From an uncultured Candidatus Saccharibacteria bacterium (GTDB taxonomy: Bacteria; Patescibacteriota; Saccharimonadia; Saccharimonadales; Saccharimonadaceae), in contig CAYLKD010000002.1 of NCBI GenBank assembly GCA_964384345.1, positions 45,518 to 109,517 of the forward strand: a stretch of 64,000 nucleotides of DNA, given 5' to 3'. Below the pieces are notes generated by a model. It saw only the letters and a program-made list of their open reading frames with translations. It ran no database searches and was not told the DNA's origin. This document shows positions 2,515-55,449 of this stretch, one piece after another (the first letter of the stretch is position 1; each line of letters starts with the position of its first letter). The position numbers and the translations under genes are program-made.

Positions 2515-3160
2515 TTACACGACATCATTGTCAAGGATCGTACGTAATCCATGAATGTTAATGATGGCCAAACTGTTTGTCGTGCGTTTGATATATTTCT
2601 TCGCAATAAATTCGAGTATTACTCGATTGACCGTTTCTCTCGTCAAGCTTATTGAGTCTGCGATATCTTGGTACGTTGTAGGAACAACTATAGTGACTAT
2701 GCCATCTCGCTCCTTGCCGTAATACTTTGCTAAAAATAGTAATCGGTAAGCGATGCGCTCGTGTGCAGATTTTAATTCAAGATTTATGATCCGCTGATTT
2801 GAATAGTCGAACGCGTCAAGTGCCATAGATAACGCCTGACGTATGAGCGCAGGATCGTTTTCGATGTGCTTTTGAAAGTGGTGCTTAGATATAATACTCA
2901 CTTCAATGGGAGTAATGGATTCAAAAAAAAAGTTGTTGGGCGCCACTATGGAATGCCCATAAAAATGGAAAAATACTGCCCGGCCCGGACAGTACAACTA
3001 TTTGAGTTTCACCGACTTTATTAATGGTATACGCCTTAATATATCCTGATTTCAAAAAGTAAACCCCACGTGGTTCTTCATCGGGGCTCAACAAGATTTC
3101 ACCCTTATGAAAACGGTGTGTCTTCAAATCTTCAAATAGCGCCTTGAGTGGATTATACAT
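2515..3160 (-). pseudogene. Crp/Fnr-family transcriptional regulator, frameshifted at a T9 homopolymer
   Basis: ORF 2921..3160 encodes the cNMP-binding beta-roll N-terminus. ORF 2515..2997 encodes the C-helix plus the HTH (SLTRETVNRVI). The two frames join if the T run at 2923-2931 (minus strand) is 8 rather than 9 nt, giving ...AQQLFFESITPIEV... Confidence 0.8.
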
Positions 3161-3280
3161 AAGTGTGATTTACTATTATCGAGCTATATATTCTTTTTTA
3201 GTATACGGGAGAGATAACTTGATGAGAGATAAATGTTTAGTACTATATTACTAGACTACATAAAAGAGGAGATGATTGAT

Positions 3281-3712
3281 ATGGCGAGTATTAACCCTTA
3301 TATAAATTTCAACGGGAACGCTGAAGAAGCATTCAACTTTTACAAATCGGTGTTTGGTGGTGAGTTCGAAACCGTAGTTCGTTTTAAAGATCTTGAGAGT
3401 TCAGAGTTTACCGTGCCAGAAAACGAAGCCAATAAGATTATGAGAATAGTGCTTCCAATCGGTGCAAATGTATTGATCGCCAACGATGTACCAGAAGCCA
3501 TGGGTCCAGTAAGCGAGCGTGAGAATCGATCAAAAATCGCGATCAACACAGAAAGTCGTGCTGAAGCCGACCAGATCTTTACTAGACTTAGCGAGAATGG
3601 GGAAATTGAAATGCCAATGAGTAGTAGCCCATGGGCTACATACTTCGGTATGTTTCGAGATAAGTACGGCATCGAGTGGACTATAGAGTGTAACAATAGC
3701 GCTAACAACTAG
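3281..3712 (+). CDS. VOC/glyoxalase-family protein (PhnB-like)
   Basis: The pattern INPYINFNGNAEEAFNFYKSVFGG ... FRDKYGIEW is typical of PhnB/3-demethylubiquinone methyltransferase-like VOC proteins. SD AAGAGGAG lies 9 nt upstream of ATG 3281. The ORF stays open upstream to 3233. Confidence 0.75.
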   Translation: MASINPYINFNGNAEEAFNFYKSVFGGEFETVVRFKDLESSEFTVPENEANKIMRIVLPIGANVLIANDVPEAMGPVSERENRSKIAINTESRAEADQIFTRLSENGEIEMPMSSSPWATYFGMFRDKYGIEWTIECNNSANN

Positions 3713-3786: not shown

Positions 3787-4506
3787 ATGGCGACTCCACG
3801 GCTTCCAGTTCCCGGTCAAGACGATGGCAAATGGGGTGAGATTCTCAATGACTTTCTTTCACAGTCACATAACACCGATGGCAGCTTAAAACAGGGTGCA
3901 GTTTCAACGGCTGGTGCAGCCCAAGATGCAAATGTCGTCCATACCTCTGGTGCCGAGACAATAGCAGGAACAAAAACATTTCAAGCTCCGGTCATCGTCC
4001 CTTCTCCAACACAGAATACGCACGCTGCAACAAAGGCGTACGTTGATGCTGCAGCAAACGCAGGTGCGTCAGATGCTACTACGACTAGCAAAGGCCTCAT
4101 ACAACTTGCCGGCGATCTTGGCGGTACGGCTGCCGTACCCACTGTGCCTGGTTTAGCAGGTAAGGCAAATGTTTCACATACCCATACTGCATCGCAAATC
4201 TCAGATGCATCTATTATTGGTCGAGATGTTTTGATAGCAAGTAATGCTGCAGCAGCTCGCGCTGTAATTGGTGCTGGAACTGGAAGTAGTAATCTGACTC
4301 TTGGAACAACGAGCACGACTGCAAAAGCAGGAGACTACACACCATCAAAGGTTGATGTCGGTCTAGCGAATGTTGATAATACAAGTGATACAGATAAGCC
4401 AATTTCAACTGCAATGCAAAGCGCGCTCGATACTAAAGTCAATGCTGCTGATCTCTCAGCCGTAGCAACTTCAGGGAGTTATACCGATCTTACAAATAAC
4501 CTGTGA
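3787..4506 (+). CDS. Phage tail-fibre-like repeat protein (N-terminal part of a fibre/spike)
   Basis: The N-terminus LPVPGQDDGKWGEILNDFL, the motifs KGLIQLAGDLGGTAAVPTVPGL and GLANVDNTSDTDKPIS, and the C-terminal SGSYTDLTNN are motifs I associate with phage tail fibres. The composition is Ala/Thr/Gly-rich. Confidence 0.7.
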   Translation: MATPRLPVPGQDDGKWGEILNDFLSQSHNTDGSLKQGAVSTAGAAQDANVVHTSGAETIAGTKTFQAPVIVPSPTQNTHAATKAYVDAAANAGASDATTTSKGLIQLAGDLGGTAAVPTVPGLAGKANVSHTHTASQISDASIIGRDVLIASNAAAARAVIGAGTGSSNLTLGTTSTTAKAGDYTPSKVDVGLANVDNTSDTDKPISTAMQSALDTKVNAADLSAVATSGSYTDLTNNL

Positions 4507-6227
4507 TTCCTGCAAGTGCAACTGATGCTACGTCATCCACAAAAGGTGTCATACAACTCGCTGGCGATCTTGGCGGTACAGCTGCCTTGCCTACTGTGCC
4601 TGGTTTGGCAGGTAAAGAGCCTACCGTAACGGCTGGTACTACTGCTCAGTATTACCGCGGAGACAAGACGTGGCAGACATTTAGCAAAGGAGCGCTCGGG
4701 TTAGCAAATGTCGATAACACCAGTGACGCGAATAAGCCAATCTCTACAGCTACGCAAACGGCGCTTGATACAAAGCTTACCGCCTCGGCCACCGACGCCA
4801 CTATTGCTGCGCTGGTTCAAAACTATGCGAGCTCGACCGGATCAACGCTTTCCAAAACGTATGCGCGGGGCGTCAGCATTAAAGAGTATGGAGCAACCAC
4901 AGGCTCTGCGGATAATGCTGCTGCTATACAGTCGGCTATTGATGCTGTCGCAACAGACGGCGGCGGCGTCATATTCATACCACGCGGGACATGGATAACC
5001 GGTCCAATCGTTATGAAAACTGGTGTGACTGTAGCAGGTGAAGGTTACAATAGCATTCTTAAGCTTAAGAATGGCTCAAACGCTCACATGTTCACGTTGG
5101 CAACGGCCAGTGAAAAATGGACAGGTTTTCGCGATGTGCGTCTAGATGGAAATAAGGCAAATCAAACCTCTGGTGATATCATTCACTACGATCAAACTGG
5201 CTATACATCATCTGACACTACGACACTACTCGTCGCAGATCCAAATCATTATTTGCATCGTGTTGTTTTGATCAACGCAAAGGGGCATGGGTTTTATCAC
5301 TACTCGGACTCAAATGGTGCATGTCAGCTGATTGATGTAGTATCGTACGGCAATGATAACACGGCATTTTATATAGCATCACCAGATAACCAACTCGATC
5401 ACTGTATTGGAGCTGGCTCTGGACAGCAAGGCTTCAATATTTCGGGCAATCAAAATCGATTACTTGGTTGTAAAGCATTCATCAATGGGCAAATCACCGC
5501 TTCAAACGGAGTTGGATTTTTGGTAAGTGGTGGCCGTAACGACTTGATCCACTGTGAGGCGCAGGATAATCGAAACCATGGATTTAGCTTGGTTGCCTTG
5601 GCGGACGCAATTGTTATCGTAAAGTCTGAGCGAAATGGACTTGGAGCTGGCGGTAACCCTACTGGAGGGGTTGGAGATGGTATGTATGCTCAAGCAGTCA
5701 CTAATTCTCATATCGTACTCAATGCAACTGACCGGCTAGTATCAAGTACCGCAATGCAGCGATGGGGTTATAACCTCGGAGCTGGCAATGACGGAAATAT
5801 AGTACAAATTACCGGAGGAGCAAATTCAACCGGTACAGCGGGAATTGGTTCGTGGGGCCCTAATAGCATTGTTACCGAAGTTTTCCAGGGTAAAATGGTT
5901 GCACGACCGATTGCTCCGTCTGCAGCAACATCACAATCCGGTACAACGTATACAGCGGTAATGGCTGATGCGGGTACCGTCGTTGAAATGAATAATGCCG
6001 CAGCTTCGACATTTACTATCCCGCCAAATTCTTCGGTCGCTTTCCCAATCGGTACGGTAATTGAAGTCGACCAAATGGGTGCTGGACAAGTGACGCTAGC
6101 AGCTGGTGCTGGCGTGACGCTGAGATCACGCGGCGGTGCTTATAAGCTCACTGCACAATATTCGGTAGCATCTTTACGTAAACGTGCGGATGACGAATGG
6201 GTTGTTGTAGGAGATTTGACACCGTGA
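4503..6227 (+). CDS. Pectate-lyase-superfamily (right-handed beta-helix) tailspike/depolymerase-like protein
   Basis: The GTG start overlaps the upstream TGA (GTGA). The N-terminus repeats the fibre motifs. SIKEYGATTGSADNAAAIQSAIDAV..GGGVIFIPRGTW is the Pectate_lyase_3-type entry into a beta-helix. Length is 574 aa. Confidence 0.75.
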   Translation: MIPASATDATSSTKGVIQLAGDLGGTAALPTVPGLAGKEPTVTAGTTAQYYRGDKTWQTFSKGALGLANVDNTSDANKPISTATQTALDTKLTASATDATIAALVQNYASSTGSTLSKTYARGVSIKEYGATTGSADNAAAIQSAIDAVATDGGGVIFIPRGTWITGPIVMKTGVTVAGEGYNSILKLKNGSNAHMFTLATASEKWTGFRDVRLDGNKANQTSGDIIHYDQTGYTSSDTTTLLVADPNHYLHRVVLINAKGHGFYHYSDSNGACQLIDVVSYGNDNTAFYIASPDNQLDHCIGAGSGQQGFNISGNQNRLLGCKAFINGQITASNGVGFLVSGGRNDLIHCEAQDNRNHGFSLVALADAIVIVKSERNGLGAGGNPTGGVGDGMYAQAVTNSHIVLNATDRLVSSTAMQRWGYNLGAGNDGNIVQITGGANSTGTAGIGSWGPNSIVTEVFQGKMVARPIAPSAATSQSGTTYTAVMADAGTVVEMNNAAASTFTIPPNSSVAFPIGTVIEVDQMGAGQVTLAAGAGVTLRSRGGAYKLTAQYSVASLRKRADDEWVVVGDLTP

Positions 6228-6817
6228 GAGGTGGCGTCATAGCATCGTCACAACGACGAGGAGCTATAATCACTAACCCTCCTATTTCAGATACGTTTTC
6301 AACGACATTCTCAACAACGAACTGGGCAGGAAATTCGTATGGGGTCTCTACTGTTAGTGGGCGTCTGCGGATTCCATGTACATCCAGCTATCCCCAAGCA
6401 GAAACCGCTGCGGTATTTGATATAAACTTGTACGCACTGTGGATTGAATTACCAACTGTACCGGTTGCGGGTAATGGTACGACGCAGACTCATTTCGCGA
6501 TTGAAAATAGTGGGCGTTCTAGTTTAGCCTCATTTAATTTATCTGGTGCGCCACTATCAATAGCTATGCAACTTACCGGTTCCTCCACGACGTTCTTAAC
6601 GTATAATGCAACTAATCATCGTTGGTTACGTTTTCGGTTACTGAGTGGTAATTTACTGTGGGAAGTGTCACCTGACAAAATTACATGGACACAGATTCGC
6701 ACGATTGCAGCTCCCGCGTGGGCCACTGCTGGTTCACTGAGGGTTCTGGTTGACAGTAGTTATTATGGAACAGAGACTGCACCTGGCAATGCAGAATTTG
6801 ATAATTTTAACGTTTGA
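6224..6817 (+). CDS. Hypothetical protein, jelly-roll/carbohydrate-binding-like
   Basis: In-frame GTG 6224 overlaps the stop of the previous gene (GTGA again). The ORF is open from 6197. The pattern HRWLRFRLLSGNLLWEVSPDKITWTQI resembles LamG/CBM-type domains. Confidence 0.55.
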   Translation: MRGGVIASSQRRGAIITNPPISDTFSTTFSTTNWAGNSYGVSTVSGRLRIPCTSSYPQAETAAVFDINLYALWIELPTVPVAGNGTTQTHFAIENSGRSSLASFNLSGAPLSIAMQLTGSSTTFLTYNATNHRWLRFRLLSGNLLWEVSPDKITWTQIRTIAAPAWATAGSLRVLVDSSYYGTETAPGNAEFDNFNV

Positions 6818-6855: not shown

Positions 6856-8133
6856 ATGATACAATCAATCACCGAAGAGCTTAGTTTAGAAAAAATTGTT
6901 GGCGGCGGGCAAGCGCTCGGTGTGTTGGCCGATGGGCGCAAAGCGTTCGTGTGGGGAGGTCTTCCTGGTGAAACGGTTGTGGCAACCTTCAACAAGCAAA
7001 AAAAACGTTTCGTAGATGGCGTCGTGGATCGTGTGGTGCAGCCGAGTCCTGCACGTATCCAAGCTAAGGACCCAGACAGTTATCTTAGTACGTCGCCGTG
7101 GCAAATCATGGATTTTGCAAGTGAGCAACGCTATAAGGCAGAGTTAGTACGCGAAGCATATGCGCTGCACAATATCGAATTGCCAGATACGATTGATATT
7201 TATACAGACAACAATGAGTATGGTTATCGCAACAAAATCGAATGTAGCTTTATGTGGGACGATAAAACGCAGCAGCTTGATCTAGCATTTTTTAAACGTG
7301 GCTCACACGAGAAAATTGCCATTTCAGGAACAGCAATAGCACATCCGAGCCTCAATTCCTTAGCTGTCCAAATTCGTGACGTATTTCGACAGAAGCCCAC
7401 GACTATGCAGTCGTTAGTATCGTTACTCATTCGCTGTGATCAAATGGGAAACTGCGTCTTCCAACTCTTTACAACAAATAAAGATGCATTTGCGCTGACG
7501 AGTGATGAATTCGAGGCGCTAACATCGTCTGGTGGTGAACTCATCTATGTCGATCCCGTGACCCGGGCAACGAAAGTATTGGTTACCTATGGCACGACAA
7601 CGCTAACGGATACAATACTTGGTACTTCGTTTCAGTACAAATGTGACAGTTTTTTCCAAGGAAATGTTCCACTCTATGAGCAGGCTCTGACAGATATGAA
7701 ACAATGGGTTGGTGAAGGTCCGGTAGTTGATATGTATAGCGGCGTCGGTACAATTGGCTTTACGGTCGGCGGCGACAATCTTACTCTTATAGAATCCAAC
7801 AAATCAGCAATTGATGAAATGAAGCGTAATCGTTATGAGCTTGGAAAAAAAGCAACAATAATCGAAGCAACCTCGGAAGCATCTTTAGAATATATCGTGC
7901 CTGAGGCAACTATTATAGTTGATCCACCACGTGCAGGGCTACATGAAGCTGTCGTTGATCAGCTGCTAGCAAAAAAGCCCTCACGAATAATCTATCTAAG
8001 TTGCAATCCCGTCACGCAAGCTCGTGATATAAAATACCTCAGTGCAAGCTATAAAATTATATATCAAAGAGGTTATAACTTTTTCCCACGCACACCGCAC
8101 ATCGAGTATCTCGTCGTCTTGGACCTGCAGTAG
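6856..8133 (+). CDS. RNA (uracil-5)-methyltransferase, TrmA/RumA (RlmD) family
   Basis: There is a TRAM-like N-terminus. The SAM-MTase motifs are VDMYSGVGTIG, VDPPRAGL and YLSCNP, with a C-terminal FPRTPHIEYLVVL. Confidence 0.85.
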   Translation: MIQSITEELSLEKIVGGGQALGVLADGRKAFVWGGLPGETVVATFNKQKKRFVDGVVDRVVQPSPARIQAKDPDSYLSTSPWQIMDFASEQRYKAELVREAYALHNIELPDTIDIYTDNNEYGYRNKIECSFMWDDKTQQLDLAFFKRGSHEKIAISGTAIAHPSLNSLAVQIRDVFRQKPTTMQSLVSLLIRCDQMGNCVFQLFTTNKDAFALTSDEFEALTSSGGELIYVDPVTRATKVLVTYGTTTLTDTILGTSFQYKCDSFFQGNVPLYEQALTDMKQWVGEGPVVDMYSGVGTIGFTVGGDNLTLIESNKSAIDEMKRNRYELGKKATIIEATSEASLEYIVPEATIIVDPPRAGLHEAVVDQLLAKKPSRIIYLSCNPVTQARDIKYLSASYKIIYQRGYNFFPRTPHIEYLVVLDLQ

Positions 8134-8246
8134 CAACGCGTAGTATCATTTACTACTAAATAACCATTTGTATGTAATGCAACATATTGTATAATTGGAA
8201 ATGGTGAGGGGCTGGCTCTCATCATCACACCTCTCTTGGAGGAACG

Positions 8247-8846
8247 ATGAAATACCGCTTGAAAGAAATCAGGCGCAAGACCGTGCGTCCGGTCTTGGCG
8301 ATGATCCTCGCGCTCATGCTCGGCTGCAGCATCACCACGCCGTCCATCGCGAGCGCCTCGGCGCCTAGTACCCAGCAGACCACCGTGTCTGTTTCGGCAT
8401 CGAATGCCGCTGCACCAACCGTTCAGGCGTCTGTCACAAGCACCATCCGTGCCTGCTGGCGGAGCTACCAGTTCTTCGGCGGTCGCGACCACCAGTCCGT
8501 CTCCTACAACCTGTACCTCTACGAGGACCACGGGACAGGACTGGATGTCTACCGCGCTGAAGCGACGGTGATCTCGCACAACTTCGACTCCGGTGCGCCC
8601 TACGAGGTGCTACGGAACCAGATCAACGTGCTCAACCTCGGGTACGGTGATCGGGTACTGGAGACATCGGGCGCTCCGATCAACTACGGCGAGCCGCGCG
8701 TCGATGCGATGACGGGTCACTGGCCCAGTGTCGTCGCGTACCCGAGCGCGCTCAGGGTCCGGCTGCACGGCTCCACGAGATGGAGCGACGGCAAGGTCGT
8801 CAACTGGCAGACCGGCCTCCTGGTGTGGGGTCAGACCAACTGCTGA
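8247..8846 (+). CDS. Hypothetical secreted lipoprotein on a high-GC island
   Basis: A signal peptide with the lipobox-like LMLGC is present, and SD GGAGGA lies upstream. Codon usage is strongly G/C-ending. I recognised no family. Confidence 0.65.
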   Translation: MKYRLKEIRRKTVRPVLAMILALMLGCSITTPSIASASAPSTQQTTVSVSASNAAAPTVQASVTSTIRACWRSYQFFGGRDHQSVSYNLYLYEDHGTGLDVYRAEATVISHNFDSGAPYEVLRNQINVLNLGYGDRVLETSGAPINYGEPRVDAMTGHWPSVVAYPSALRVRLHGSTRWSDGKVVNWQTGLLVWGQTNC

Positions 8847-8889
8847 CCCACCCACGCCACTACCCCTACTAGAGGAAGGAGTGCTCATG

Positions 8890-22073: not shown

Positions 22074-22988
22074 ATGAAACGAAAAATGCTGGTAGTCGCT
22101 ATTGTGGTTGTTATCGCTGCGCTCGTAGCGCTAGGGTATCGGTTGGTGCATGGAGTAACGTTTGATGTATTGCAGCCTACAGGCGTGATTGGTTTGAAAG
22201 AGCGTAATTTGCTACTATTCACGCTTGGTCTAAGCCTCATAGTCGTAGTACCAGTGTTTACGATGTTGGCGGTATTTGCATGGAAATACCATGAGTCGAA
22301 TACAGAGGCTACATACAAACCAAATTGGACGAAAAACACTACACTCGAAACCATTTGGTGGGGTATACCGATCGTTATTATAGCGATATTATCTCTTGTT
22401 ACGTTCATTACTAGTCATACGTTAGATCCGTATAAGCCAATAGCATCTAACAACCGGACGATAGAGGTGCAAGTCGTCGCTCTGCAATGGAAGTGGCTTT
22501 TTATATATCCTGATTATGGTATTGCAACGGTCAATGAATTACCAATAGCGGTGAATACACCGATACATTTTTCACTGACAGGGGATGCTCCAATGAACGG
22601 TTTCTGGATACCAAGTTTGGGGACACAAATATATGCGATGAATGGCATGCAATCAGAGTTAAACCTTATGGCTAATAAAGTTGGCGTATACAAAGGTCAC
22701 GCAACAAACATTAACGGTAAAGGTTATGCGGACATGAACTTTACCGTCAAAGCGCTTTCGAGTGGTGATTTTGATACATGGCAAAAGTCCGCCCACGATT
22801 CTCCTGATCAATTAACAAAAGCAACGTACGATAAGCTAGCGGAGCCAAATACGATGGGTGTACGTACATTATTGCTCGCTGACCGTACGTTATACGATAC
22901 AATAATGATGAAATATATGACAAAACAAACCACTAAGAATAATACAACGAAATCAACTATGGACCACCATAGCATGGACGCTATGTAA
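22074..22988 (+). CDS. cyoA: Cytochrome bo3-type quinol oxidase subunit II
   Basis: It has two N-terminal TM helices and a cupredoxin domain (ALQWKWLF, PMNGFWIPSLG). The protein has no cysteine at all, so there is no CuA site. This marks it as a quinol oxidase rather than a cytochrome c oxidase. Confidence 0.88.
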   Translation: MKRKMLVVAIVVVIAALVALGYRLVHGVTFDVLQPTGVIGLKERNLLLFTLGLSLIVVVPVFTMLAVFAWKYHESNTEATYKPNWTKNTTLETIWWGIPIVIIAILSLVTFITSHTLDPYKPIASNNRTIEVQVVALQWKWLFIYPDYGIATVNELPIAVNTPIHFSLTGDAPMNGFWIPSLGTQIYAMNGMQSELNLMANKVGVYKGHATNINGKGYADMNFTVKALSSGDFDTWQKSAHDSPDQLTKATYDKLAEPNTMGVRTLLLADRTLYDTIMMKYMTKQTTKNNTTKSTMDHHSMDAM

Positions 22989-24949
22989 TGGAATTATTTG
23001 CAAACCTACTCGGAAGAATGTCACTGGAATATTTTCCGAAAGAACCAGCAACGATCGGTGCCGCAATTGGTATGCCACTAGCGGTTTTTGGTGTTGTTGG
23101 CCTCTTGACCTATTTCAAAAAATGGCGATGGCTATGGGACAACTATTTGACGTCACTCGATGCAAAAAAAATCGGTGTCATGTATATTGCCGTAGGTCTA
23201 ATCATGCTAATTCGTGGACTCGCTGATACGCTGATGCTCCGTTTACAAACCGCTGTGGCCGTGGGTGATCAAGCGGGTCCGTTTAGCACCGATACATTTC
23301 AGCAAGTATTCACGGCACATGGCACAATTATGATTTTCTTTGTCGCCATGGGTCTAATGTTTGGGCTTATCAATGTGGCCCTACCGTTGATGCTGGGGAC
23401 TCGAGATGTAGCTTTTCCGCTTCTAAACTCAATTAGCTTTTGGTTATTTGCAGCCGGCATGATACTGATCAATTTTTCTCTGATCTACGGCGGTTTCAGT
23501 AACGGGGGATGGCTCGGATATCCGCCGCTGACGGAACTACAATATAATCCAGGACCAGGAGTTGATTACTGGATATGGAGTTTGCAGATTGCCGGAGTAG
23601 GAAGTTTGCTTTCGGGCATCAATTTCTTTGTCACCATTATCAAAAATCGCGCACCAGGTATGACATTTATGAAGATGCCTATATTCGCATGGAGCGTTCT
23701 CGTGACAACAGTTCTAATAATGTTGGCTTTTCCGATACTGACAGCGACGCTCGCCATGCTCTCGCTCGATCGAACCCTTGGAATGCATTTTTTCACCTCG
23801 CTTGCTGGCGGGAACCCTATGATGTACATCAACCTCATATGGGCTTGGGGTCATCCAGAAGTATATATTCTGGTACTACCAGCATTTGGTATTTTTTCAG
23901 AAATAGTGGCAACATTTAGTCGTAAAGCGTTGTTTGGCTACAAATCTATGGTCATAGCGCTGTGTGCGATCATGGTTTTATCATTTATCGTCTGGCAGCA
24001 CCATTTCTTCACCATGGGTGCGGGAGCCAATGTCAACGCATTCTTTGGTATCATGACGATGATCATTGCAATCCCTACAGGAGTAAAGATATTCAACTGG
24101 CTGTTTACGATGTATCGAGGTAAGATTTTGTTTGCTAGTCCGATGTGGTGGTTTATGACATTTGTCGTCACATTTACACTAGGTGGAGTTACCGGTGTAT
24201 TGATGGCAGTTCCGGCTATTGATTATCAAGTGCACAATACGTTGTTTCTCGTAGCGCACTTCCATAATGTGATAATTGGTGGGGTAGTATTCGGCTATCT
24301 TGCCGGGGTCGCCTACTGGTTTCCAAAGATGTTCGGCTTCACGCTTATCGAACGCCTCGGCAAATTATCGGCAGCATTATGGCAGCTCGGCTTTATCCTT
24401 GCGTTTATGCCACTATATGCACTTGGACTCATGGGTGCAGTTCGCCGCCTTGATCATTACACTGACCCGGCTTGGACACCGTTCTTCATAGTTTCAGGGA
24501 TCGGGGTCGTGATCATTTGTGGCGGTGTGTTTGTACTCGTATTGCAAATAGCACTCAGTATATGGAAACGAAAGTCACTCAAAGCAGGCGGCGATCCATG
24601 GAACGGCCGTACGCTTGAATGGTCAGTGCCGTCGCCGGCGCCTAGCTATAACTTTGCAGTCATCCCACATGTCTCAGAGCGTGATGAGTGGTGGCACCGA
24701 AAGCAGCACAAATTAGCGCATGCTATCGATCACTACCAGGATATTATGCTACCAAAGAATTCTTCAATTGGTCTCATAATTGGTGGCCTTGCCGGTATAG
24801 CAGGTTTTGGGATCATTTGGCACATATGGTGGCTGTCAGCTATCGCTGTTGTGGCTATCATCAGTACGGTCATTATTCGATCAAATGTTGAAGAAACTGA
24901 ATTTACCATTACTGCTGCAGAACTAAAGAATGCTGAGGCAAAATTATGA
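22988..24949 (+). CDS. cyoB: Quinol oxidase subunit I (heme-copper oxidase)
   Basis: WAWGHPEVYILVLPAFGIFSE and HHFFTMG are present, with about 14 TM helices. Length is 653 aa. Confidence 0.95.
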   Translation: MELFANLLGRMSLEYFPKEPATIGAAIGMPLAVFGVVGLLTYFKKWRWLWDNYLTSLDAKKIGVMYIAVGLIMLIRGLADTLMLRLQTAVAVGDQAGPFSTDTFQQVFTAHGTIMIFFVAMGLMFGLINVALPLMLGTRDVAFPLLNSISFWLFAAGMILINFSLIYGGFSNGGWLGYPPLTELQYNPGPGVDYWIWSLQIAGVGSLLSGINFFVTIIKNRAPGMTFMKMPIFAWSVLVTTVLIMLAFPILTATLAMLSLDRTLGMHFFTSLAGGNPMMYINLIWAWGHPEVYILVLPAFGIFSEIVATFSRKALFGYKSMVIALCAIMVLSFIVWQHHFFTMGAGANVNAFFGIMTMIIAIPTGVKIFNWLFTMYRGKILFASPMWWFMTFVVTFTLGGVTGVLMAVPAIDYQVHNTLFLVAHFHNVIIGGVVFGYLAGVAYWFPKMFGFTLIERLGKLSAALWQLGFILAFMPLYALGLMGAVRRLDHYTDPAWTPFFIVSGIGVVIICGGVFVLVLQIALSIWKRKSLKAGGDPWNGRTLEWSVPSPAPSYNFAVIPHVSERDEWWHRKQHKLAHAIDHYQDIMLPKNSSIGLIIGGLAGIAGFGIIWHIWWLSAIAVVAIISTVIIRSNVEETEFTITAAELKNAEAKL

Positions 24950-53293: not shown

Positions 53294-53776
53294 TTAGCGC
53301 GTAAGAGCGTAAAGCGCTATACCAGTTGCAACTGATACGTTGAAGGATTCCTTTTGTCCATACATCGGTATTTCGACGACTGCGTCACAGCGTGACAAAT
53401 AAGCCTTTTCTATGCCGTGCACCTCTTCACCGAGGAGTAAACCAAACGAAGTTGGTGGTGAGAAGGTGTCTATCAGTGTCGCTGATGTTGATTGCTCAAG
53501 TGCGATCAAAGGTTCTGTATTTGTCTTCAGCCACTCATCAAGCGATGTCACATAGCGAAAAGGTACCATCGATTCGGCTCCTAGTGCTGTTTTGTGAATC
53601 TGACTGGTGATCTTATCGCGAATGTGCGGCAGACGGGAATCATTTGACAAAGTTGGATATGGTGTGTAGCCAGTACATATAATCTCTACTACGCCAAATC
53701 CTTCTGCGGTGCGAAAAATTGAACCAACATTGTGTGTCGAGCGAATATTATGCAAAATTAGTCGAATGGCTGACAT
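53294..53776 (-). CDS. TrmH/SpoU-family RNA 2'-O-methyltransferase
   Basis: The SpoU motifs are NVGSIFRTAEGFG, LLLGEEVHGI and IPMYGQKESFNVSVATGIALY. I chose the start at Met47 of the ORF, using the promoter and the divergent neighbour as guides. Confidence 0.8.
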   Translation of the reverse strand: MSAIRLILHNIRSTHNVGSIFRTAEGFGVVEIICTGYTPYPTLSNDSRLPHIRDKITSQIHKTALGAESMVPFRYVTSLDEWLKTNTEPLIALEQSTSATLIDTFSPPTSFGLLLGEEVHGIEKAYLSRCDAVVEIPMYGQKESFNVSVATGIALYALTR

Positions 53777-53783
53777 ATATCGT

Positions 53784-53792
53784 ATTGTACCA
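53784..53792 (-). promoter_or_regulatory. Extended -10 (TGgTACAAT) 7 nt upstream of the trmH-like ATG 53776
   Basis: Minus-strand motif with no SD. Confidence 0.45.
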
Positions 53793-53813
53793 CTATAAAA
53801 ACCATGAGCTTTT

Positions 53814-53822
53814 TGGTATAGT
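53814..53822 (+). promoter_or_regulatory. Extended -10 (TGgTATAGT) 7 nt upstream of pilB ATG 53830
   Basis: Plus-strand motif with no SD. It lies back-to-back with the element at 53784-53792. Confidence 0.45.
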
Positions 53823-53829
53823 ACGGGCA

Positions 53830-55449
53830 ATGGATGAGAATAAAATACAAGCACAGCGTCGTCAGCATGATGAGGAAGCGACAAAGCAGCGCGCGGCCAT
53901 TCTGGGCGTGTCATACCTTGATACGAGGCAGCTGGAAAACGAGCTGCCGCTTGTCAGTGATACGCTGAGTGTTGCTGATATGTACCGGACATACGTCGTG
54001 CCGCTTCGCGGACCTATTGATGGCTCGCCGTACGAATTTGGTATAACCACTCAGACCCCACAATCAGTGCTTCGAGAAATGACTCAAAACTACAATGATA
54101 ATGGCAACAATATCCATTTTTCAATGATCAGTGGCTCTGGCTTTAAAGCTTTCATGCAGCGATACGACCCACCAAAAAAAGTCATTTACGATGATATTAA
54201 AATCGGCGGTGCAGGTGATAGCGACACGATTACGGAGGTAAGTAAGACACTCAACGCTGTTGGCACAGATCAAGTATTTGATTTTCTCATAGATCAAGCA
54301 GACTTACTCGGCGCAAGCGATATTCATATTGAAAATCAGCGGACCTACATTCGTATACGTATGCGTATTGATGGAGCACTTCATCAGGTCGCGGAGCTTG
54401 AAAAAGATCGCTATAGGGTCATCATGGGCGCACTTGGATCTCGTGCAAATATTTCAGTTGCAGCAACAGATCCACAATCGGGACATATGCAAAAGGATAT
54501 TACTCGAGATGGGGCAACACACCTGTTGAACCTTCGTGTTGAAACTGTACCGACCATGTATGGCCAAGACGCGGTGTTACGATTATTTAATTTCGATGAG
54601 AGTCTCTTGCAGCTTGATCATTTATCGCTTTCAGAAAAAGAGCGCACTAAGATCGATGAGATCATCAGTCACCCACGGGGGCTGGTACTTATGGTTGGTC
54701 CAACCGGCTCCGGTAAATCAACAACACTGTATAGTATGCTCAATGCACTCAATACATCTGACAGAAAATTAATCACGCTCGAAGACCCAATTGAGTATGG
54801 CTTGACTGGTATATCTCAAATTCCGATCGACACGACTGGCGGCAAAAGCTTTGCTGATGGTTTGCGCAGTGTGCTGCGTCTCGATCCTGATGTCGTGATG
54901 GTTGGAGAGATTCGCGACGCTGATACCGCGCGAACAGCTATTCAAGCGTCGATTACGGGACACCTCGTCCTCTCGTCGTTTCATGCAAATTCAACAGCCG
55001 CAGCCTTTAGCCGCATGATCGACCTTATTGGTCAAAATCCGATCTTTAGCTCGGCGATTCGACTTGTCATAGCGCAGCGCCTCGTTCGCAAGCTTGTCGA
55101 CGAAACGAAACAAGAGTACGAGCCAGATGAAGCAACGCGTAAATGGGTCAATGACGTACTGCAAGGAATTCCTTCCGAGGAGCTACCAGATCTTGACACG
55201 TTCAAGCTGTGGAAGCCAGTTCCTTCTGAAGCTGCCCCATTCGGCTACAAAGGCCGTATGGTTATCATGGAGCAAATGGTCATCGACGAAGAAATCCAAA
55301 AATTCATCCGTGGTGATGCCGAAGATATTCATACTGAGTCAATAGAAAAAGCAGCCAAGGCTGGCGGAATGCATACACTCCTGCAAGTCGGGGTGCTAGC
55401 AGCACTGCGCGGTGAAACAACGCTCGAGGAAGTGAACCGTGTCATTTAG
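53830..55449 (+). CDS. pilB: Type IV pilus / type II secretion ATPase (PilB/GspE family)
   Basis: It has a T2SSE N-domain, Walker A GPTGSGKSTTLYS, Asp/His boxes and Walker B DPDVVMVGEIRD. The ORF stays open upstream to 53719. Confidence 0.88.
   Translation: MDENKIQAQRRQHDEEATKQRAAILGVSYLDTRQLENELPLVSDTLSVADMYRTYVVPLRGPIDGSPYEFGITTQTPQSVLREMTQNYNDNGNNIHFSMISGSGFKAFMQRYDPPKKVIYDDIKIGGAGDSDTITEVSKTLNAVGTDQVFDFLIDQADLLGASDIHIENQRTYIRIRMRIDGALHQVAELEKDRYRVIMGALGSRANISVAATDPQSGHMQKDITRDGATHLLNLRVETVPTMYGQDAVLRLFNFDESLLQLDHLSLSEKERTKIDEIISHPRGLVLMVGPTGSGKSTTLYSMLNALNTSDRKLITLEDPIEYGLTGISQIPIDTTGGKSFADGLRSVLRLDPDVVMVGEIRDADTARTAIQASITGHLVLSSFHANSTAAAFSRMIDLIGQNPIFSSAIRLVIAQRLVRKLVDETKQEYEPDEATRKWVNDVLQGIPSEELPDLDTFKLWKPVPSEAAPFGYKGRMVIMEQMVIDEEIQKFIRGDAEDIHTESIEKAAKAGGMHTLLQVGVLAALRGETTLEEVNRVI

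Follow-up and report, generated by a model that had tools for sequence, protein, structure and literature searches.

This study concerns a three-gene cassette on contig CAYLKD010000002.1 of an uncultured Candidatus Saccharibacteria bacterium; the whole stretch of DNA that was analysed, 64 kb in length, is referred to as the window. Three consecutive open reading frames (ORFs) lie on the plus strand at 3787-6817, and each adjacent pair overlaps by the tetranucleotide GTGA (4503-4506 and 6224-6227). Judged by the relatives of its proteins, the cassette can be securely described as an actinophage-type receptor-binding/depolymerase unit, one that appears to stand alone in the core chromosome of a Saccharimonadales-like organism. 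Modelling predicts that the unit is complete and contains, in order, an N-terminal adaptor, fibre repeats, a beta-helix, a distal knob, and a lectin-like accessory. Its features are:

3787-4506, plus strand: gene 1, 239 amino acids (aa), ATG start
Gene 1 residues 5-38: N-terminal adaptor motif, RLPVPGQDDGKWGEILNDFL...HNTDGSLK
Gene 1 residues 47-66: BppL_N-like segment
Gene 1 residues 96-121: fibre repeats, here a DUF5907 unit, in addition to a GLANVDNTSD..KPIS unit
4492-4508, plus strand: gene 1/gene 2 junction, ACA AAT AAC CTG TGA with GTG at 4503, putative 1-nt frameshift site
4503-6227, plus strand: gene 2, 574 aa, GTG start
4503-4877, plus strand: gene 2 residues 1-125, fibre repeats, a second copy of the gene 1 repeat units
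4878-5912, plus strand: gene 2 residues ~126-470, predicted right-handed parallel beta-helix
5913-6227, plus strand: gene 2 residues ~471-574, C-terminal beta domain (knob) of ~100 aa
6224-6817, plus strand: gene 3, 197 aa from the GTG at 6224; the longest form, from the ATG at 6197, has 206 aa

The reading frames, both overlaps, and the peptides on which the original prediction was built are all present in the sequence; the ORF translations contain KGLIQLAGDLGGTAAVPTVPGL, KGVIQLAGDLGGTAALPTVPGL, GLANVDNTSD(T/A)(D/N)KPIS, SGSYTDLTN, NAAAIQSAIDAVATDGGGVIFIPRGTW, FTIPPNSSVAFPIGTVIEVDQMGAGQVTL, and WVVVGDL. There are no internal stops across the ~1000 codons of genes 1-3. The start at 6224 is also used in the Joint Genome Institute (JGI) gene call for an identical gene 3 protein (P0122, 197 aa). 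The two identical GTGA overlaps are real, yet unremarkable in themselves, because start/stop overlaps of 1 or 4 nt are routine elsewhere in the window, where at least six further same-strand pairs have them (at 22988, 24946/24949, 35540, 37046/37049, 38967, and 39956).

Translational coupling had been proposed for both junctions. At 4503-4506 the overlap is better read as a frameshift scar, because the repaired junction aligns whole with an unsplit homologue. The frame of gene 2 is -1 relative to that of gene 1 and is open only from 4500; restoring one base in AAT-AA(N)-CCT-GTG gives a fused product reading ...SGSYTDLTNNPVIPASATDATSS..., which aligns with the uninterrupted homologue P0009 in a single high-scoring segment pair (67% identity, 86 aa, one gap). 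No Shine-Dalgarno sequence was found upstream of the gene 2 GTG at 4503. Many homologues are single polypeptides with a gene 1-type N-terminus followed by the beta-helix, and most simply genes 1 and 2 would be the halves of one ancestral tailspike gene split by a 1-nt frameshift. A programmed -1 frameshift at A-AAT-AAC is unlikely, since the heptamer does not fit the slippery pattern X XXY YYZ and no homopolymer is present at which transcription could slip. Assembly error at the junction was rejected: an independent Logan contig carries identical DNA across it, and JGI calls the same 574-aa product. The GTG of gene 3 (6224) is preceded by GGAG, 12 nt upstream. Two other loci (L125 and L126) encode a protein ending in a gene 2-type C-terminal domain and then a gene 3 homologue, with an ATGA overlap, which suggests that the gene 2/gene 3 overlap is conserved in the family.

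Domains of the three proteins and their relatives in phages

The phage fibre or minor tail character proposed for gene 1 and the N-terminus of gene 2 is borne out by profile comparisons. Gene 1 matches the Pfam families BppL_N (PF18338; 33.5 bits, gathering cut-off 25.8) and DUF5907 (PF19264; 28.4 bits, gathering cut-off 27), and it has 21 PHROG matches, mainly to tail fibre and minor tail families (best E 1.4e-24). By tblastn it matches 262 records of cultured phages. Its N-terminal motif is common to single-gene homologues in Candidate Phyla Radiation (CPR) genomes and a few Streptomyces phage proteins. The repeat units of gene 1 recur in gene 2, where the DUF5907 score (26.7 bits) is slightly below the cut-off of 27, and they are visible as direct repeats in the DNA at 4060-4163/4512-4615 (81%) and 4358-4436/4696-4774 (76%). 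Residues 1-123 of gene 2 have a predicted local distance difference test score (pLDDT) below 50 in the AlphaFold2 monomer. None of the three genes receives a useful name from NCBIfam.

Gene 2 had been expected to contain a Pectate_lyase_3-like beta-helix, and the fold, together with the expected fibre architecture, has held up in AlphaFold2 and Foldseek, while the family assignment has not. AlphaFold2 models residues ~125-470 as a beta-helix with pLDDT mainly 70-90. Gene 2 does not match Pectate_lyase_3 (PF12708) or Beta_helix (PF13229) at E <= 1; precomputed tables assign PF12708 to its homologues P0015 and P0016 and PF13229 to P0002. GH28-type models of NCBIfam reach only residues 114-203, far under their cut-offs. 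An alignment of the beta-helix family has 61 invariant columns, from which the motifs LDGN, DPNH, CEAQDN, RNGLG, and QRW were read.

In both structure and profile comparisons the best matches of the beta-helix are the A-modules of AlgE-type epimerases (PDB 2pyg, 5lw3, and 8ja4). Foldseek against the PDB ranks those of AlgE4 and AlgE6 first (E 1e-11, template modelling (TM) score 0.64), and the sequence profile of the family finds AlgE-type epimerases over ~255 residues (E 4e-19). The catalytic residues differ: those of AlgE4, which we take to be Y149, D152, H154, and D178, stand opposite H, Y, Y, and A of gene 2 in the phmmer alignment (KGHGFYHY, FYIA-SPDN). An AlgE-type epimerase function was rejected on this ground, so gene 2 would be related to AlgE in fold without being an epimerase by its active site. 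Foldseek also returns an alginate epimerase/lyase and, at probability 1.0, E 3e-8 to 1e-4, and identities of 12-17%, tailspikes, among them CBA120 TSP2, Sf6, and HK620. These tailspikes and phi29 gp12 likewise have a right-handed parallel beta-helix that comes after an N-terminal adaptor; in the cassette, however, adaptor and helix are on two polypeptides and lie outside any phage genome. On the modelled fold, the beta-helix of gene 2 is probably polysaccharide-binding or polysaccharide-cleaving.

The C-terminal domain of gene 2 had been tentatively likened to a domain of actinophage tail proteins, and the comparison proves sound. Residues 477-572 match positions 660-755 of the 755 positions of phrog_8780, annotated as 'minor tail protein' (E 9e-38), and at residues 474-573 the identity with the C-termini of minor tail proteins from Gordonia phages is 57-62%. 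The knob superposes on many phage fibre C-termini in BFVD with a root-mean-square deviation of 1.3-1.7 A. By sequence it would be of a kind usually seen at the distal end of minor tail proteins from actinophages. Searched by tblastn against cultured phages, gene 2 matches 338 records, including 230 from Gordonia, 32 from Mycobacterium, and 26 from Arthrobacter phages.

The relatives closest to the cassette appear from these comparisons to be actinophage tail proteins. Minor tail proteins such as gp26 of Gordonia phage Nettuno and gp38 of Jabberwocky (PHROG 8780) resemble it in having fibre repeats and a C-terminal domain of ~100 aa. In Nettuno a small gene, gp27, lies directly downstream of gp26, as gene 3 does after gene 2, although gp27 has no detectable relation to gene 3. 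The Gordonia genes belong to a tail module and have lysins, other tail proteins, and an integrase around them, whereas the cassette has no such neighbours; furthermore, the cultured Gordonia proteins lack the beta-helix of gene 2, and their matches span only ~31-37% of it. The closest viral beta-helix is on IMG/VR contig IMGVR_UViG_3300013105_000238 (L036), where 300 aa are 50% identical to gene 2. This is a phage contig of 47.5% GC with endolysin, portal, and capsid protease genes, and its portal is 61% identical to those of large (120-134 kb) Streptomyces phages; to judge from these similarities it may represent a low-GC actinophage lineage that is a donor or sister of the cassette. On another contig (L037) a gene 2 homologue directly follows the tape measure, Dit, and Tal genes.

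Gene 3 had been described as a carbohydrate-binding jelly-roll, and the structural evidence is in moderate agreement with this. The AlphaFold2 model is all-beta (pLDDT 65, predicted TM score 0.58), and all 155 of its Foldseek matches at E <= 1e-3 are lectins, glycoside hydrolases of family GH16, or carbohydrate-binding modules (CBMs), with TM scores of ~0.5. They include legume lectins, ERGIC-53, GH16 enzymes, and CBM2 of the Dit protein of phage J-1 (E 2e-5). Gene 3 can be assigned with moderate confidence to the concanavalin-A-like beta-sandwiches, as modelled, and is probably a carbohydrate-binding accessory of the fibre tip. It has no Pfam match, Laminin_G_3 included, and its sole sequence match in the PDB, 3o12, is weak (E 0.054); phrog_14065 is matched at E 3.5e-16. 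The family, for which Pfam has no model, is large: 3688 representative clusters were counted at E <= 1e-3. Among the proteins examined (P0251-P0399) the domain often occurs as 2-8 tandem copies within long proteins (600-2500 aa). In IMG/VR, domains like that of gene 3 are mainly on contigs of 62-72% GC, the closest full-length homologues are 47-54% identical and come from contigs of 64-70% GC, and the nine records among cultured phages are all from Streptomyces phages.

Known phages offer parallels to the pairing of genes 2 and 3. T4 gp37-gp38 and lambda Stf-Tfa are pairs of a fibre and a downstream accessory or adhesin in which the small gene follows the fibre gene's end and is linked to it in translation, as is proposed for gene 3, although gene 3 has no sequence relation to gp38 or Tfa. 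The CBMs of the Dit protein of Lactobacillus phage J-1 (PDB 5ly8) have the lectin-like beta-sandwich that gene 3 matches. Most phages have the gene 3-type domain fused into a longer tail protein, while in the cassette it is a separate gene. A further arrangement occurs at L003 47-5365 (GC 66%), where a 938-aa homologue has two tandem gene 2-type beta-helices and the same C-terminal knob. It is preceded by a beta-helix protein and followed, with an ATGA-type overlap and in a position like that of gene 3, by a Laminin_G_3 protein; this downstream gene was dropped as a gene 3 homologue, at 18% identity.

Chromosomal setting and composition

The window has 45% GC, and the ORFs scanned across it are all cellular (TrmD, RsgA, MetK, PheT, CyoB, RelA/SpoT, UvrB, DnaE, PilB, PepN, and GatB). 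The absence of other phage genes, claimed for about 4 kb on either side, extends to the whole window: no capsid, portal, terminase, tape-measure, integrase, sheath, tube, or baseplate gene was found in these 64 kb, which include 3.8 kb upstream of the cassette. There are no paralogues of genes 1-3 in the window and no att-like direct repeats flanking the cassette, and promoter and terminator scans of the locus are at chance level only. The immediate neighbours are also those named before:

3233-3712: VOC/glyoxalase protein, upstream neighbour
6856-8133: TrmA/RlmD-type RNA methyltransferase, downstream neighbour

The cassette DNA has been assembled independently in a Logan contig and a JGI contig. 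Its GC content is 47.8%, and the excess over the window comes from codon positions 1 and 2. The GC content of third codon positions (GC3) is 0.30-0.39 in genes 1-3 compared with 0.41 +/- 0.04 in 49 host genes, and synonymous codon usage is host-like (z -0.5, -0.9, and -2.4). Recent transfer of genes 1-3 from a high-GC donor was rejected because their GC3 is host-like.

Other parts of the region are of different character. A Crp/Fnr-type regulator on the minus strand, 0.6 kb upstream, is split into two overlapping ORFs, a cNMP_binding part (2921-3160) and an HTH_Crp_2 part (2515-2997). The break falls at nine consecutive T of the coding-strand read (~2922-2930) and marks either a pseudogene or a phase-variable/frameshift site. 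Downstream by 1.4 kb is a sharply bounded island of ~650 bp with 60-68% GC (8240-8880), which is present in the JGI and Logan assemblies too. Its ORF at 8247-8846 (plus strand) encodes 199 aa with a lipoprotein-like N-terminus (MKYRLKEIRRKTVRPVLAMILALMLGCS), has GC3 of 0.82 and a codon-usage z of -4.9, and has no Pfam, NCBIfam, PADLOC, or phage match. Its composition suggests that this one gene was acquired very recently from a high-GC organism, which may have been the actinobacterial host. A tRNA-Gln(CTG) gene is 1.9 kb upstream of the cassette, with no partial copy downstream; in that region (1850-1961) a perfect 17-nt hairpin (1924-1961) directly follows the tRNA. The minus strand at 2198-2416 encodes a 72-aa acidic protein with a KGG stress repeat. 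Farther away are a cytochrome/quinol oxidase subunit I (22988-24949) and a PilB-type type IV pilus ATPase (53719-55449), both of which bear on the lifestyle of the lineage, as a component of aerobic respiration and as evidence of pili.

The suggestion that the organism is a Saccharibacterium agrees with its homologues. Self-matches aside, the methyltransferase reaches at most 65% identity with any homologue found, and its nearest informative named match, at 59%, is from Candidatus Saccharimonadales; all of the window proteins that were looked up are singletons at 90% clustering. The source would be a Saccharimonadales-like lineage without close sequenced relatives. Contigs of two relatives, with methyltransferases 62% and 64% identical, have neither the cassette nor shared synteny with the window. 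A 64% methyltransferase match on a 4.7-kb contig labelled Pedobacter sp. was taken as a mislabelled fragment. A metagenome scan for relatives of the cassette gave repeat-level matches only, and exact-protein look-ups of gene 1, P0121, and P0122, meant to reach DNA upstream of the window, returned nothing.

Stand-alone relatives in Saccharibacteria and other CPR

Homologues also occur outside prophages and virions. When species-representative genomes were scanned with two beta-helix motifs, 32 loci were found; 22 are from CPR, 17 of these from Saccharibacteria. Stand-alone CPR genes (L002, L004, L007, L012, L018, L023, L027, and L031) begin with the N-terminal motif M-x-R-L-P-x-P-G-x-D-x-G-x-W-G-x-x-L-N-x-F-L, followed by a beta-helix. 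They are like the cassette in this motif, in the beta-helix, in their chromosomal non-phage context, and in having no signal peptide; they differ from it in that each is one polypeptide of 430-630 aa, with neither the C-terminal knob nor gene 3. Seven CPR loci with the single-gene form have cellular neighbours: GluRS and G6PD; TatC and a ComM-like protein; a glycosyltransferase and SSB; NUDIX and ClpB; FtsK, RNase J, and EF-P; RNA ligase and MarR; and SMODS. Two pairs of the tailspike-like genes are syntenic orthologues:

L007 9587-11050 and L018 9503-10966: tailspike-like gene, syntenic orthologue pair
L027 9689-10993 and L031 7867-9183: tailspike-like gene, syntenic orthologue pair

In the first pair the identities are 92% for FtsK, 88% for SSB, and 72% for the tailspike-like gene, and in the second the shared upstream synteny (55-79%) is accompanied by a tailspike-like gene that is 74% identical. 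Both pairs have non-synonymous divergence (pN) of 0.17 and synonymous divergence (pS) of 0.76-0.85, the latter saturated. Because these genes are syntenic orthologues with pN far below pS, the comparison indicates that they have been inherited vertically and kept by strong purifying selection.

Saccharibacteria and other CPR also have giant proteins of 1500-3400 aa (L006, L011, L013, L014, L016, L019, L021, L022, L024, and L025) with a beta-helix ~30% identical to that of gene 2. A literature search for tail fibre, tailspike, minor tail protein, or DUF5907 in CPR or Saccharibacteria found nothing relevant. Transposon sequencing of Southlakia includes one pectin-lyase-like protein (SEML1_0645), which has a different architecture and is non-essential in co-culture.

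Domestication and the alternatives

As members of known phage families the proteins of the cassette are ordinary; what is unusual is the setting and the pattern across the family, which is chromosomal, phage-free, and selected. The reading preferred here, with a probability of about 0.45, is that the cassette has been domesticated and retained for a cellular role; for a use in host attachment the support comes from the family and not from the locus itself. A cellular role is favoured because the unit appears complete, is intact apart from one frameshift, and falls in a class that CPR genomes demonstrably keep. The cassette would then belong to a wider class of stand-alone tailspike-like genes kept as cellular genes by Saccharibacteria and other CPR. 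Its product would bind, and probably cut, cell-envelope polysaccharide of the actinobacterial type, with the groove of the beta-helix as the binding or catalytic site and with the C-terminal knob and the gene 3 lectin adding glycan affinity. It may be used at the interface of epibiont and host for attachment, for local remodelling of the envelope, or for removal of phage receptors. Since no signal peptide was found, the protein would need a non-classical route of export. The split in the source genome may have weakened the protein, or may have turned it into an anchor part and an enzyme part.

Several points weigh against retention. Across the databases searched, the three-gene cassette was found in the source organism only. 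The frameshift puts the adaptor and enzyme parts on separate polypeptides, and the second of these is the one whose start lacks a Shine-Dalgarno sequence. The search for signal or secretion features came back negative: no signal peptide or transmembrane segment was found in genes 1-3 (19-residue hydropathy maximum <=1.25, and <=0.87 near the N-termini), whereas several of the giant Saccharibacteria beta-helix proteins carry N-terminal signals or membrane anchors. The translations also have no LPXTG-type motif. Host-like codons would also be expected if the donor was the Saccharibacterium's own phage, and the frameshifted Crp-like gene and the foreign high-GC gene together suggest a variable, relaxed region. 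Finally, the beta-helices of the stand-alone CPR genes are 23-46% identical to that of gene 2, those of L007 and L018 only 23-28%; the genes shown to be selected would be a different subfamily, and their selection is not automatically transferable to the cassette.

The main rival, although doubtful, is that the cassette is a decaying remnant of a prophage or of injected phage DNA with no cellular role, derived either from an actinophage that adsorbs to the epibiont or from a Saccharibacteria phage with actinophage-like fibres. The already frameshifted ancestral gene, the lack of a Shine-Dalgarno sequence before gene 2, the want of an export signal, the restriction to one organism, and the variable surroundings would all suit such a remnant, as would the tRNA-Gln gene upstream and the two relatives (62% and 64%, where the best overall is 65%) in which the cassette is absent beside the same methyltransferase. 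A source of such DNA is available, since Saccharibacteria carry predicted prophages (120 have been predicted; PMC10746230) and an actinophage, a prophage of the host, binds the Saccharibacterium TM7x (PMC13578794); for both reasons gene flow from phages into Saccharibacteria is plausible. However, three frames that are open over 3 kb apart from one frameshift, in a lineage with small, streamlined genomes, count against a remnant, and neither an integrase, an att repeat, nor any other phage fragment was found in the window. The cassette is also an exact functional unit, from adaptor to accessory, and no random slice, and related stand-alone Saccharibacteria genes are demonstrably under selection.

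It is improbable that the genes encode the fibre of a dispersed particle, such as a tailocin, gene transfer agent, or prophage whose other genes are elsewhere. Release by lysis would need no signal peptide, so that the absent export signals fit virion proteins, and the N-terminal adaptor is of the kind that docks a fibre to a baseplate and is common to phage proteins. Fibre genes are found at separate loci in gene transfer agents such as RcGTA, and the window is only 64 kb of the genome. Yet those 64 kb have no structural genes, the single-gene relatives are likewise alone in seven CPR loci, and we know of no tailocin or gene transfer agent described in CPR; a literature search for either in CPR found none.

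Very improbable is a primary use against phages, in which a free tailspike-like depolymerase or lectin would strip or mask a glycan receptor on the epibiont or host and so reduce actinophage adsorption: the parts are closest to actinophage receptor-binding proteins and the CPR relative L027 has, at a distance of 2 kb, a SMODS gene of the kind common in defence islands, but no PADLOC defence model matches genes 1, 2, or 3 and the export problem is the same as for domestication. Work cited in PMC11934309 is reported there to show that free capsule-degrading tail fibres shield Klebsiella communities from phage and that TM7x shields its host from lytic phage through changes in cell-wall polysaccharide, both of which favour this use.

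If the cassette is instead domesticated, as preferred here, its interest lies partly in the family. In the selection and holding of hosts by CPR epibionts, type IV pili and unnamed adhesins are the sole players described (PMC9894109; PMC10633639). The cassette, a phage receptor-binding module with relatives directed at Actinobacteria and itself carried by an epibiont of these bacteria, offers a concrete candidate, open to cloning, for a part in recognising the host or in remodelling the envelope or receptor. The pattern at the level of the family, with stand-alone tailspike-like CPR genes that are syntenic and under purifying selection, may outweigh the single locus, and it suggests that, within a quarter of bacterial diversity, phage-derived surface tools form a class that can be reused. 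A broader proposal, offered tentatively and with some doubt, is that CPR epibionts have repeatedly captured the receptor-binding proteins of their hosts' phages and kept them under selection, with such proteins acting as host-range determinants. The captured genes would recognise, grip, or digest host envelope glycan locally, or would strip phage receptors. Were the cassette only a remnant, it would still record gene flow from actinophage-like viruses into a Saccharibacterium, in keeping with the binding of a host prophage to TM7x. If receptor-binding proteins have indeed been captured, the cassette would be an example of actinophage type, with a distal knob and a lectin partner, and a possible determinant of the host range of the epibiont.

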